DNA of 64,000 bases from the NCBI GenBank assembly GCA_947626105.1, contig CANQQY010000002.1:101083-165082 (forward strand). The letters are read 5' to 3'. Of the stretch, positions 35,656-43,444 are shown in pieces. The stretch's first letter is position 1. Every line of letters begins with the position of its first letter. A program made the translations under genes and the position numbers. The notes under the pieces were generated by a model. That model was not told the origin of the DNA. It did no database searches and saw only the letters and a list, made by a program, of their open reading frames with translations. Source of the stretch: an uncultured Clostridia bacterium (lineage in GTDB: Bacteria > Bacillota > Clostridia > Christensenellales > Borkfalkiaceae).

Positions 35656-35905
35656 GCTGTGATAGGTGGGGAGTTAGCGGTGCCCTGAATCTGCAATCCG
35701 CTATAGCAGAGCCGAACGCTTTTCTCGGTGCCGTCTATGGGAGGCTGCGCGGGGTAAGCAGTGATGATCGCAAGGTCTTATGCAACGCGCGTCCGCGAAC
35801 CGTGTCAGGGTAGGGATACAGCAGCACTAAACGGTGCCGCGCGTGTGCCATGAGGTAGCTTTGCGGGAGCCGGCTGCCACGTTACCGCTCCGGTAGGTTG
35901 CAACA
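35656..35905 (+). ncRNA. ffs: Signal recognition particle RNA, long (Bacillus-type, with Alu domain)
   Basis: GUGUCAGGGUAGGGAUACAGCAGC and GCGUGUGCCAUGAGGUAGCU match the domain IV strands of E. coli 4.5S (GUCAGGUCCGGAAGGAAGCAGC; GCGUGUGCCGGGAUGUAGCU). The 5' GGUGGGGAGUUAGCGGUGCC is Alu-domain-like. The ends are approximate. Confidence 0.75.
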
Positions 35906-35937
35906 AAAAAAGCCCTCACAGTTTTTTTGAAAAGATT

Positions 35938-35972
35938 CCGCCCGACGTTTCCGTCGGGCGGGTGTTATTTTT
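35938..35972. terminator. Terminator between the SRP RNA and the AT-rich island
   Basis: CCGCCCGACG-TTTC-CGTCGGGCGG followed by GTGTTATTTTT. Confidence 0.65.
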
Positions 35973-36960
35973 ATGATTTCTTTTGCACTTTCATCAACGT
36001 TTTTACAATTATTCTTTTTTTAATTTTCTTGGTAGCAACTTGAATCAGAATTGCTACGGCAAGGATGATTCCCGCCCACAACAAGAACGGCCACCAATCT
36101 ATCTTAAAGTTGTTCGTAAAAATTGTAACGCCGTTACTGTCTGTTTCAAATTTGCCATAAATTACACTTCTCATAAAAGACATTATCATGTCCTTGCCCC
36201 AACACGCAAAGAATATTTCCAGCACACACCATGCCAGTTCAGAAACAAATTGTATTACCGCAAGCAAATATGCCTTGTTGGGATTCGTCGCAATAAAACA
36301 TGCAGAATCCATTCTTTCGATATTTTTCTCTTCCTTGGCTTCCCTAATTTCCCGATTGAGACTAAATTCCTCATCGTCGTCCTTTTTCTCTTTTTTTGCG
36401 GCACTTCGTGAGATAGCAGAATTGATCGCTTGCGAAATATCTATGCGGTTAGACCGTATCCATTTCCCAAAATTAAAGTCACGGAAGAAAGCGACCAATA
36501 CATTCATGACAATCGAAATTATATACATGAACACAAGCATGTAAAATAGCGTGTCTAGTCGAGCGACATCTGAAGCGTAAGAAGCCATCGCGCGCAAATA
36601 TTTTTCGGGCGTTATGTTTAAATAATTATCGAAAGATTGAAAGACCCAGACCAGGCCATAAATTAACGGAATTACCATGAGGCATGCCGAAAGAACACCA
36701 AATATGATTTTTTTCGTTTTTTCCTCCGGGACACTTTCATTCCATCGTTCGAATAAATTTTTCTTGCTTTCGTCCTTATTTGAATCGGGGGAGGTCGCTT
36801 TTTCCTCGGGCAAAACGTAGCCACATAGTTTGCACGATCCATTTCCCAAATTGATATGACCGCATTCGGGACACACAAAAATTTTTACGCCGCAATGCGG
36901 ACATGTGGTTGCTTGATCTGAAATTTCCTGCCCACACTCGGGACATTTGATCATTGCCAT
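35971..36960 (-). CDS. Double zinc-ribbon membrane protein (329 aa), unknown function
   Basis: MAMIKCPECGQEISDQATTCPHCG and VCPECGHINLGNGSCKLCG, then about 4 TM spans and a KKEKKDDDEE loop. Strongly AT-rich codon usage, unlike the neighbouring genes. Confidence 0.7.
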   Translation of the reverse strand: MAMIKCPECGQEISDQATTCPHCGVKIFVCPECGHINLGNGSCKLCGYVLPEEKATSPDSNKDESKKNLFERWNESVPEEKTKKIIFGVLSACLMVIPLIYGLVWVFQSFDNYLNITPEKYLRAMASYASDVARLDTLFYMLVFMYIISIVMNVLVAFFRDFNFGKWIRSNRIDISQAINSAISRSAAKKEKKDDDEEFSLNREIREAKEEKNIERMDSACFIATNPNKAYLLAVIQFVSELAWCVLEIFFACWGKDMIMSFMRSVIYGKFETDSNGVTIFTNNFKIDWWPFLLWAGIILAVAILIQVATKKIKKRIIVKTLMKVQKKS

Positions 36961-36972
36961 TTTTTCTCCTTA

Positions 36973-37542
36973 CTACAAATATAAATCTGGATTTATATTT
37001 TCAAAATATTTTTTGTCTTTCTTGTTTAAACCTGTAAAATCTACTTTCTTCGAAATATTCTTCTCATTCAAAAGCCACACCTGATATAATTTTTCGTATA
37101 GAAGATATTTAGCGATTAACTTTTTGGATTTTATCGTATAGTTTATACAGAATGCAGCACCGATAAAAATGGTCAAAACAGCAACAAGCACGATCGGACC
37201 TATAATCATCAGCATAGTATCGTCACTATTTAAATCCAAAACTTTCGTTTGTATCAAAATTAAAAACAAAAAATCTATTGCTCCTGCACCACAAATAATT
37301 CTACTGAAGATCGTATACTTTCTGCGGCACTTTAACGCTTTTTGCTTCGCGTAAGGACACATGTACTTCGGATATTTCTTCTGAAACTCTTCTTCAAGAT
37401 TATTTTGCTTGATCTTGTCGAAGGTTTGAAAGTCAACCGCAGAATTTTTTTGTTTTTCTTTGATAAGTTTACCGCAATGAATACATCGCTCTACGGTATC
37501 GCTTACCTGCCCGCCACAGTGTGGACAAACAATCAATGCCAT
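36973..37542 (-). CDS. Zinc-ribbon membrane protein (189 aa), unknown function
   Basis: MALIVCPHCGGQVSDTVERCIHCG and two TM spans. GGAGGA lies 6 nt upstream of the ATG. AT-rich. Confidence 0.7.
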   Translation of the reverse strand: MALIVCPHCGGQVSDTVERCIHCGKLIKEKQKNSAVDFQTFDKIKQNNLEEEFQKKYPKYMCPYAKQKALKCRRKYTIFSRIICGAGAIDFLFLILIQTKVLDLNSDDTMLMIIGPIVLVAVLTIFIGAAFCINYTIKSKKLIAKYLLYEKLYQVWLLNEKNISKKVDFTGLNKKDKKYFENINPDLYL

Positions 37543-37583
37543 ATAAAATCCTCCACTTAAACGCGTTCGCGTTATTCGACACC

Positions 37584-37612
37584 ATTATAGCAATATTTTG
37601 TTATTATGTCAA
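37584..37612 (-). promoter_or_regulatory. Consensus sigma-A promoter of the zinc-ribbon genes
   Basis: Minus strand reads TTGACA (37612-37607), 17 nt, TATAAT (37589-37584). Confidence 0.65.
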
Positions 37613-37630
37613 GAATTTTTATCACAATCG

Positions 37631-37639
37631 TGTTAAAAT
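37631..37639 (+). promoter_or_regulatory. Extended -10 box giving a leaderless XRE transcript
   Basis: TGt-TAAAAT (37634-37639), then 6 nt (AATAAT) and ATG 37646. No Shine-Dalgarno site. Confidence 0.45.
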
Positions 37640-37645
37640 AATAAT

Positions 37646-37981
37646 ATGGAAAAAATGACGATCAATGAAAGAATCAAGGAATTGCGAACGGAAAATGGAT
37701 TGACGCAGAAACAGCTCGCAGATGCGGTCGGGATCCCACAAACGACGGTTGCGTGCCATGAAAAGTCGCATGACCCGAATATCTATATTTTGATGAAGTA
37801 TGCCGATTTTTTTGAGTGCTCGCTCGATTATTTGGCGGGACGGGAACAGGCGCCTCTGCCCTATGCGCTCTCGCCGCAGGAGCGGGAACTCGTTCAGAAA
37901 TTCCGCTCTTTGAAGCCGCCGCTCCGCTCCTTTGCCTTTGAACAATTAAAACTTCTCTCCGAATCGGAAATCAACTGTTAA
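37646..37981 (+). CDS. XRE-family helix-turn-helix regulator (111 aa)
   Basis: RIKELRTENGLTQKQLADAVGIPQTTVACHEKS HTH_3 core, followed by a C-terminal extension. Confidence 0.75.
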   Translation: MEKMTINERIKELRTENGLTQKQLADAVGIPQTTVACHEKSHDPNIYILMKYADFFECSLDYLAGREQAPLPYALSPQERELVQKFRSLKPPLRSFAFEQLKLLSESEINC

Positions 37982-38014
37982 ACTCCCGTCTGCATCGGCG
38001 GGAGTTTTGTTTTG
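37981..38014 (+). terminator. Intrinsic terminator closing the island
   Basis: AACTCCCG-N10-CGGGAGTT followed by TTGTTTTG. Confidence 0.6.
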
Positions 38015-38024
38015 TCGCTTTTTT

Positions 38025-38207
38025 CTTGGCGCCCTGTTCTACGCGTCATTCCAAATCACGTCATCTTGAGCCTGTCGAAAGATCACCGCATTATAATAAG
38101 GTGATGCTTCGACTATGCTCAGCATGACGTATTTTTATGACACCCCTTCCGTCACGGCAAGGACAGCCGTGCCACCCACCCCTCGAGGGGTGGGCAAGGA
38201 TGAGCTC
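38025..38207. repeat. Intergenic mosaic repeat cluster R6
   Basis: Junction motif CATTCCAAATCAC, family C copy, and a family F-like GCCACCCACCCCTCGAGGGGTGGGCAAGG. Confidence 0.8.
38058..38130. repeat. Family C TIR-bounded hairpin unit, copy C2
   Basis: ACGTCATCTTGAGC...GCTCAGCATGACGT, with an internal GATCACCGCATTATAATAAGGTGATGC hairpin. Confidence 0.8.
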
Positions 38208-38273
38208 AATAGTCATTCAAATGCATAAAATAGCATATGTTATATAACGCATGTTATGAATGGAGAACAGAAA

Positions 38274-43204: not shown

Positions 43205-43444
43205 ATGAAAAATAAATTTGCCATGCGGCTTAGCGAACTTATTGCCGAAAGCGGAAAAACGCAGAACGCTATCTGCTCGGATCTGCATATCGCGAAACAA
43301 AAACTTTCTAATTGGAAAACGGGTTACACGGAACCCTGTATGGATGATCTCATGATGCTTGCCCTCTATTTCGAAGTGACGAGCGACTACCTCTTGGGGT
43401 TGGAGGACGAGACGGGCGCAAAGCACGATTTTGAGGAAAAATAG
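43205..43444 (+). CDS. XRE-family helix-turn-helix regulator (79 aa)
   Basis: RLSELIAESGKTQNAICSDLHIAKQKLSNWKTG HTH_3 core. No Shine-Dalgarno site upstream. Confidence 0.7.
   Translation: MKNKFAMRLSELIAESGKTQNAICSDLHIAKQKLSNWKTGYTEPCMDDLMMLALYFEVTSDYLLGLEDETGAKHDFEEK

Follow-up and report, generated by a model that had tools for sequence, protein, structure and literature searches.

A hypervariable locus beside the SRP RNA gene of rabbit-gut Clostridia carries a conserved XRE repressor module and an undescribed family of zinc-ribbon membrane proteins

We analyzed a 64,000-nt stretch of DNA (hereafter the window) from an uncultured Clostridia bacterium (GenBank assembly GCA_947626105.1, contig CANQQY010000002.1, positions 101,083 to 165,082 of the forward strand) and followed up a block of about 2 kb that adjoins ffs, the gene for the signal recognition particle (SRP) RNA. 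The block carries genes for two membrane proteins with zinc ribbons, named A and B here, and a divergent gene for a small regulator of the XRE type. The finding is a hypervariable locus whose content is replaced by recombination and which holds its own conserved repressor module together with an undescribed family of membrane proteins. The block is best explained as one allele of a repressor-gated slot for cargo genes that this clade has beside ffs, at a recombination hot spot, and that would have a role in genetic conflict; we give this reading as a whole a probability of only about 0.4. The features of the locus, in window coordinates, are as follows.

35657..35921, plus strand: ffs, the large bacterial SRP RNA (265 nt; Rfam RF01854, 162.9 bits, full length).
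35937..35962, both strands: G+C-rich hairpin, a terminator (terminator scan).
35971..36960, minus strand: gene A, 329 aa (list of open reading frames (ORFs), Pfam, AF2 model).
36973..37542, minus strand: gene B, 189 aa (ORF list, Pfam, AF2 model).
37560..37573, no strand assigned: palindrome O2, presumed operator (sequence; kept in 21 loci).
37584..37612, minus strand: P_BA, the cargo promoter (12/12 consensus match).
37619-37636, plus strand: palindrome O1 (kept in 21 orthologous loci).
37646..37981, plus strand: XRE/Cro-C1-type repressor gene, 111 aa (HTH_3).
37980..38007, plus strand: terminator hairpin of the XRE gene, within the conserved XRE module (terminator scan).

Beside ffs, the cassette of XRE, B and A is present in 10 or more related species from the rabbit gut and is AT-rich in all of them, and XRE orthologues with 66-92% identity were found in 16 rabbit-gut species. 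The polynucleotide phosphorylase (PNPase) of the window genome is nearest to those of Candidatus Gallimonas and Christensenellales-like metagenome-assembled genomes (MAGs). L-numbered loci in the following are contigs or MAG loci of relatives. The gene order was pnp-XRE-B-A-ffs-mrp in L010/L195 and XRE-B-A-ffs-mrp in L094/L194, L200 and L203, with the same order but no B in L199, and a mirror arrangement in which ffs lies on the XRE side (for example mrp-A-XRE-ffs) was observed in L201, L192 and L104/L109. One of the two, the cassette or the RNA gene of 265 nt, has switched sides, with all orientations being retained. In L201 (7001-7657), only 57 nt separate the stop codon of XRE from the start of ffs, which has the same orientation. 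The sequence of ffs is 88-100% identical across the relatives and the cassette always adjoins it, on one side or the other; ffs is a conserved flank and likely serves as the recombination anchor of the hot spot. B is absent and A is present in L099 as well as L199, and the G+C of the cargo genes was 0.33-0.46 in every related locus, compared with about 0.60 in the flanks and genomes.

Pairwise comparison with these relatives gave three patterns. First, divergence differed within the locus. Between the window and L190, the flanks were 92-97% identical in DNA, and synonymous divergence (dS) was 0.118 for mrp and 0.067 for the C-terminal part of pnp; for XRE, dS was 0.81 and nonsynonymous divergence (dN) was 0.147, and the cargo could not be aligned. 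The cargo of L190 is a single 377-aa protein with two ribbons and an A-type membrane domain; homology to the window breaks off exactly with the stop codon of A (35971), restarting 38 nt inside B (37505), and the XRE module is 79% identical over 37505-38113. Relative to L010, identity was 96.6% for PNPase, 82% for Mrp, 72% for XRE, 38% for B and 34% for A. Second, the alleles were mosaic. The XRE-promoter block was 92-99% identical between the window and L103, after which identity fell abruptly to about 40% over the cargo, with an island of 78% at the part of A that encodes the zinc ribbons, and L010 and L094 displayed the same mosaic pattern when compared with each other. Third, XRE and the flanks were incongruent: XRE and PNPase were 92% and 91% identical in L188, and XRE and a PNPase fragment were 79% and 100% identical in L190. 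The divergence, mosaic and incongruence patterns require repeated allelic exchange through recombination. The breakpoints map to ffs and the conserved flanks, to the promoter region and to the 5' ends that encode the ribbons, and the age of the exchanged alleles is roughly 7-10 times that of their host genomes. The locus is ancestral in position, not in content. The ratio of dN to dS (omega) was 0.04-0.18 for XRE, in comparison with 0.04-0.08 for pnp, and XRE is under strong purifying selection. For A and B, omega was about 0.5-0.6, with few substitutions, in the sole near-identical pair (L268, 98.5% DNA identity).

The composition of the block is in agreement with what an earlier note, made from the letters of the window, had described as an AT-rich island beside the SRP RNA gene. 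The segment 35971-37542 has 37% G+C, which is the minimum of the 64 kb; in 1.6-kb windows G+C was 0.367 over the block against a mean of 0.565 (sd 0.039; z = -4.9) for the whole 64 kb, and in 300-nt windows it was 0.32-0.41 over 35.97-37.65 kb against about 0.55-0.65 in the flanks. G+C at third codon positions (GC3) was 0.43 in A and 0.37 in B, compared with 0.80 in pnp, 0.74 in mrp and 0.72 in a yegP-like gene; whole-gene G+C was 0.40 in A and 0.335 in B, and the XRE gene was intermediate (G+C 0.485, GC3 0.58). The base bias of the block resides in codon usage, beyond amino-acid content alone. The same note had taken the composition as a sign of horizontal acquisition. The foreign-like composition was confirmed, but the acquisition was neither recent nor private to this genome, since the cassette lies beside ffs in many related species. 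Conservation of the genes at this locus across the clade with similar composition, which the note had named as evidence against its own reading, was found for the position and for the low G+C; the content, however, is not vertically inherited and the alleles are mosaic.

Foreign-looking composition could also be explained by a recent island or a decayed prophage lysogeny module, with a repressor and superinfection-exclusion-type morons left beside ffs. The resemblance of the repressor to ImmR and P22 C2 and the match of an unannotated phage family, phrog_6586, to residues 1-159 of A (5e-9) fit this explanation, but it is the least supported of those considered and very unlikely. The cassette stands at ffs in 10 or more species, and the divergent gene order differs from that of int-sie-cI modules. 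No integrase-like ORF was present among the ORFs listed for 33.5-40.5 kb, as the earlier note had also stated; no att-like flanking direct repeats were found around the block; and in tblastn searches of phage and plasmid collections similarity was confined to the 25-residue zinc ribbon. An integrase-mediated island or prophage at the small-RNA gene was rejected on these grounds. The suggestion of a prophage remnant in the earlier note was not supported either, as there was no phage or plasmid similarity beyond the ribbon, no significant viral or PDB structural neighbor and no PADLOC match for A or B. In scans of A and B against Pfam, PADLOC, PHROGs and NCBIfam, only phrog_6586 and sub-threshold hits to SLATT and TcaA were obtained beyond the ribbons. 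Both sub-threshold hits were rejected: the SLATT model NF033634 reached 14.1 bits (cut-off 41; E = 0.035) over residues 64-127 of B, which is at the level of composition, and the TcaA model NF053815 reached 19.5 bits (cut-off 550) over residues 3-27, that is, the ribbon only.

The part of the cassette that is kept through the exchanges is the regulator with its promoters and palindromes. XRE consists of a helix-turn-helix (HTH) region (residues 1-65; HTH_3 at residues 10-63, 2.2e-11, 44.1 bits against a cut-off of 23) followed by a conserved C-terminal helical tail. The closest solved structure is ImmR of ICEBs1 (7t8i, 5.6e-8), and next are the P22 C2 repressors. The PADLOC capH model matched XRE over the full length of the hidden Markov model (4.4e-10, 38.6 bits), with the score coming mostly from the HTH. 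A peptidase of the ImmA, IrrE or CapP type was absent from the ORFs of 33.5-40.5 kb (XRE, B, A, pnp and mrp) and from the related loci, and membership in the CapH-CapP regulators was rejected because the capH-like XRE has no adjoining peptidase gene in either. The XRE genes at 43205 and 4447 of the window are not close paralogues of the cassette XRE.

P_BA is a strong promoter of the sigma-70 type, TTGACA-17-TATAAT with TG, on the minus strand (37612..37584), and all 12 hexamer positions match the consensus, as the earlier note had read it. Both hexamers are invariant in 7 aligned cassettes and conserved over 21 orthologous loci. In the opposite direction, the extended -10 box of XRE, TGtTAAAAT, has its last base at 37639; 6 nt separate it from the ATG at 37646, and no Shine-Dalgarno sequence (SD) is present. 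This geometry, which had likewise been noted earlier, was reproduced: the TGnTAAAAT box is conserved in the 21 loci and the 6-nt spacing to the ATG in 20/21, the exception being L191, with ATA at the start position and the next ATG 9 nt further. The XRE mRNA is probably leaderless. A -35 box of XRE would fall at 37611-37616 (AAGAAT, a poor match to the consensus), and this position overlaps with the -35 box of P_BA (37607-37612, minus strand). Since this -35 sequence is poor, the XRE promoter would rely on its extended -10 box, and the overlapping promoters of XRE and the cargo may compete for RNA polymerase.

Two palindromes accompany these promoters. O1 reads TTATCAC-AATC-GTGTTAA in the window (consensus TTAGCAC-N4-GTGCTAA), is present in all 21 orthologous loci, overlaps the -10 box of XRE and, on the upstream side of P_BA, ends 6 nt short of its -35 box; in L097 it carries a two-sided change (GCAT..ATGC) that preserves the palindrome. 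O2 reads AACGCG-TT-CGCGTT in the window and is flanked by the cargo -10 box and the SD of B. It occupies the same position in the 21 loci in three symmetric variants: type a, which is the same as O1, TTAGCACGTTCGTGCTAA; type b, found in the window at 37560-37573, AACGCGTTCGCGTT; and type c, AACaAAnnTTTGtT. The O2 type agrees with the sequence type of the XRE HTH in 21/21 loci (QTTVAAYE(R/K)SH with type a and QTTVA(C/S)HEKSH...DPNIYIL with type b), and the cargo type is independent of this split. Co-variation of this kind would look like specificity groups of repressor and operator. Alternatively, O2 may be an RNA hairpin in the 5' untranslated region.

The same regulator was also found in front of other cargo. 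In the cargo slot of L196 (169-588, minus strand) and L191 (1021-1329, minus strand), there are unrelated membrane proteins of 139 and 102 aa without zinc ribbons, and that of L189 (22-576, minus strand) encodes a 184-aa protein with two transmembrane (TM) helices and no zinc ribbon; the G+C of these three loci's cargo genes is higher than that of A and B. In L197 (1051-1224, minus strand) and L198 (just upstream of 7001, minus strand), the gene behind XRE, the promoter and the operators encodes a soluble peptide of 44 aa, with the sequence MSVEEFITLLQVELKDDVIGAIIRKENVITVTFTDGTVRTIAVS in one of the two loci and a homologue in the other. It could be a small anti-repressor or a signaling peptide. 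In a Pfam scan of the alternative cargo proteins, the 44-aa peptide included, no family was matched.

These cargo swaps bear on the possibility that the cassette is an addiction or stabilization module resembling toxin-antitoxin systems. In such a module, XRE would serve at the level of transcription as the antidote to membrane proteins that are toxic once derepressed, and the cassette would maintain itself selfishly. Among antitoxins, XRE regulators of the HipB, HigA and MqsA type are frequent, and XRE gave weak NCBIfam matches to regulators of these types. The strong cargo promoter, the rare codons and the tight predicted control are also consistent with such a module, and toxins are often small helical membrane proteins. 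On the other hand, XRE persists with the 44-aa soluble peptide as cargo, cargo can be lost, the genes are divergent, unlike co-transcribed type II pairs, and there is no evidence of neutralization by protein-protein contact. An addiction module is accordingly improbable. A type II toxin-antitoxin pair in the strict sense was rejected, the genes being divergent with separate promoters and A and B matching no toxin family.

The ORFs, the Pfam matches and the TM spans agree with the gene content given in the earlier note (A of 329 aa, B of 189 aa and a divergent XRE protein of 111 aa), and its picture of a repressor opposite small membrane proteins describes the gene layout fairly. A consists of two C4 zinc ribbons (residues 1-47), a pre-TM helix and four TM helices, with hydrophobic spans at about 85-103, 141-159, 232-250 and 292-310. 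It matched Zn_ribbon_3 (PF13248; 1.4e-11, 43.9 bits against a cut-off of 27) and DZR (PF12773; 2.4e-6, 28.1 against 27.3). In B, a single zinc ribbon at the N-terminus is joined by a helical linker to a two-TM hairpin, and the conserved tail reads LLxxKLFQxWL; the match of B to Zn_Ribbon_1 was weak (22.1 bits against a cut-off of 25), and the invariant CPxCG...CxHCG motif is retained nonetheless. Each gene has its own SD, and the gap between B and A is 12 nt; the two are predicted to be co-transcribed. The relation between their N-termini, claimed previously, was upheld, with 13/24 residues identical (54%, E = 3e-8). In hhalign, however, no homology was detected between the B family and the membrane domain of A beyond the ribbon, and the idea that A is a duplicated B was rejected because their membrane parts lack homology. 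In the AF2 models, for which mean pLDDT was 77.8 for A and 82.8 for B, small ribbon knuckles are followed by very long helical hairpins (helices 78-114, 118-171, 227-267 and 289-328 in A; 65-98 and 107-161 in B). Likeness to the alpha-pore-forming toxins ClyA and AhlB was rejected (Foldseek E > 1, TM-scores below 0.25).

Relatives of these proteins are few. A word-indexed search of 5.8 billion proteins returned about ten full-length relatives of A, with 21-70% identity, the other matches being limited to the ribbon. When 1.84 billion representatives were searched exhaustively with a profile of the membrane domain of A (alignment A2), 32 clusters (50% identity) were retrieved, and almost all of them have 300-340 aa and the architecture of A. 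The B family comprised 14 clusters. Among GTDB species representatives, full-length relatives of A occurred almost only in MAGs of uncultured Clostridia from the rabbit gut ('Lapin'). The membrane domain of A has no Pfam family, and a description of the A/B family was not found in the literature. A and B appear to form a small undescribed family of membrane proteins without a domain model or structural neighbor. One metagenomic protein, P0141 (478 aa), is a natural fusion of a B-type protein (ribbon, two TM helices and WL tail) to an A-type four-TM domain, and the ribbons of its A-type part have decayed. This fusion, together with the adjacency of B and A in most alleles, supports the view that B and A act as one complex in the membrane. 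A distant pair, B-like (183 aa) and A-like (306 aa), was observed in L107 (399-2858; contig from SRR33322321, about 40% G+C), from an organism of low G+C. A 70-aa HTH_26 gene lies on one side of it and a 196-aa HTH_3 gene on the other, and this pair, too, exceeds its flanks in A+T.

The distribution of conserved residues in A bears on a second explanation, that of an envelope-associated accessory scaffold with no role in conflict. In this explanation, B and A would be a fast-drifting anchor pair whose ribbons recruit a conserved cytoplasmic partner under a stress-responsive XRE, and the diversity would arise from weak constraint on simple helical membrane segments together with ordinary recombination. 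The conserved parts of A are the ribbons, the pre-TM helix (ERW...NP) and a KWIR motif following TM2, which are predicted to be cytoplasmic; beyond the ribbons, the invariant residues are limited to W73, W167 and G269. Variation is about the same in the TM helices, in the cytoplasmic loop and in the two predicted outside loops. These features and the omega of about 0.5, which fits relaxed constraint, are as a scaffold would have them, and there is a precedent in YdjG and YdjH of Bacillus subtilis, an interacting membrane pair that anchors soluble partners (PMC8581546). However, no SPFH or PspA gene lies nearby; drift alone is insufficient for alleles that are 7-10 times as old as their flanks and have sharp DNA breakpoints; GC3 that stays low although that of the genome is near 0.8 speaks against long quiet residence; and the slot admits unrelated cargo. 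A scaffold without a conflict role is on balance rather unlikely. Membership in the PspA-YdjGHI (SamGHI) module itself was rejected, with no SPFH or PspA gene found in the neighborhood or in the related loci.

Returning to the cargo slot with a conflict role, the most likely function of the cassette is phage exclusion, abortive infection or a similar activity of a membrane effector, and we put this forward tentatively. Such a role is favored by the turnover of alleles, possible presence/absence variation, foreign-like codons, a repressor of the phage and integrative-and-conjugative-element (ICE) type and small non-enzymatic membrane cargo. Presence/absence variation is possible in view of L014 (PNPase 95% identical), in which just 620 bp of repeats resembling miniature inverted-repeat transposable elements (MITEs) lie between pnp and ffs and the XRE gene was not found in the MAG. 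As for the mechanism, XRE dimers would bind O1, which overlaps the -10 box of their gene, and O2, which separates the cargo -10 box from the SD, thereby limiting their own expression and holding B and A silent until some signal removes the repressor. B and A would then form one membrane complex with the zinc ribbons and juxtamembrane helices facing the cytoplasm, in which the ribbon heads would be the conserved part for interaction and the bundle of helical hairpins the variable part that acts on the membrane. Replacement of the cargo, at times together with the repressor module, has occurred repeatedly among the related Clostridia of the rabbit gut, with the low G+C being retained. A more specific proposal is a minimal membrane immunity system of an unrecognized kind, kept as a trans-species polymorphism: the ribbon heads of B and A would sense a component of a phage or other element, the interchangeable hairpins would collapse or block the membrane, and O2 types a, b and c with XRE would act like phage immunity groups. 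We consider this proposal unlikely.

Several observations weigh against the conflict role or against parts of the model. A and B have no catalytic or conserved polar residues. PADLOC gave no match for either, and Foldseek searches of their models against PDB and BFVD returned nothing at E < 0.01 beyond the ribbon match. The predicted outside loops of A show no excess variation, so that the signature of selection by an external ligand is absent; an arms race with an external ligand at these loops was dismissed, as they are no more variable than other regions. There is no gene for a protease or anti-repressor partner nearby. Some species retain XRE with non-membrane cargo, which means that the repressor is not exclusive to the A and B proteins, and the agreement between O2 and XRE types could be plain linkage, the two being about 100 bp apart. 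Finally, the contig of L014 ends inside ffs and may be followed by a cassette on the far side of it.

The locus can be compared with several known systems. It resembles capsule and O-antigen loci and defense-island hot spots in its conserved flanks (ffs, pnp and mrp), its old, unalignable mosaic alleles, its atypical G+C and its possible presence/absence variation. Unlike these, the cassette is tiny (about 2 kb, 1-3 genes), its cargo consists of small membrane proteins, and its own conserved repressor-promoter module would be an internal recombination anchor. The regulator is similar to ImmR of ICEBs1, phage cI and C2 and CapH in that it is small, combines an XRE-type HTH with a helical tail at the C-terminus, is divergent from its presumed targets and has palindromic candidate operators over both promoters, but no protease gene of the ImmA or CapP type, CBASS operon or mobile-element genes adjoin it. 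In B. subtilis, YdjG and YdjH, encoded in pspA-ydjGHI, are interacting membrane proteins that anchor soluble partners, and YdjG opens with a zinc-ribbon-like CPxC motif (PMC8581546). B and A share with them an integral membrane pair with a ribbon-headed member, probably a membrane platform, with the B-A interaction being a prediction here; they differ in having no SPFH (YdjI) or PspA partner, no detectable similarity beyond the ribbon, XRE control instead of sigma-W, and a hypervariable, clade-restricted cassette locus. Lactococcal Sie and SieA of P22 are membrane proteins of prophages that act in superinfection exclusion or abortive infection (PMC10883804). The cargo is like them in being small, AT-rich, fast-evolving membrane proteins beside a repressor gene with no enzymatic domain, and unlike them in that the cassette lies outside a prophage and the cargo is divergent from the repressor, not co-transcribed with it. 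To our knowledge, N-terminal zinc ribbons are not a feature of proteins of the Sie/SieA type.

The cassette offers a cleanly bounded 2-kb example of a slot whose regulator and promoter stay and whose cargo is exchanged between species, with breakpoints that can be mapped to the base. It also defines a protein family with a double zinc ribbon and four TM helices, paired or fused with a two-TM partner that bears a ribbon. If a conflict role is true, a very compact type of repressor-gated membrane effector would be added to those known; if not, the locus would be a natural case of operator-repressor co-variation and of AT-rich codons that last in a genome of high G+C.

The edges of the block were also compared with the relatives. 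The earlier note had bounded the island by hairpin terminators on both sides; both hairpins are present, but the left one (35937-35962) belongs to ffs and is not a border of the block, because it is also found 3' of ffs in L014, L191 and L196, where A and B are absent at that place. This hairpin is predicted to serve bidirectionally, ending both ffs and the B-A operon, and it lies outside the variable block; homology of the flank to the relatives extends to 35962-35971. Contigs from four other rabbit samples are 100% identical to the window from 35214/35282 to 38616/39049, and an assembly chimera was rejected because these four independent contigs are identical over both junctions. On the other side, the spacer between the XRE terminator and pnp (38025-38221) consists of MITE-like repeat modules that differ between close relatives, as does L014:10193-10666, and because these modules vary the pnp-side edge of the variable block is blurred.

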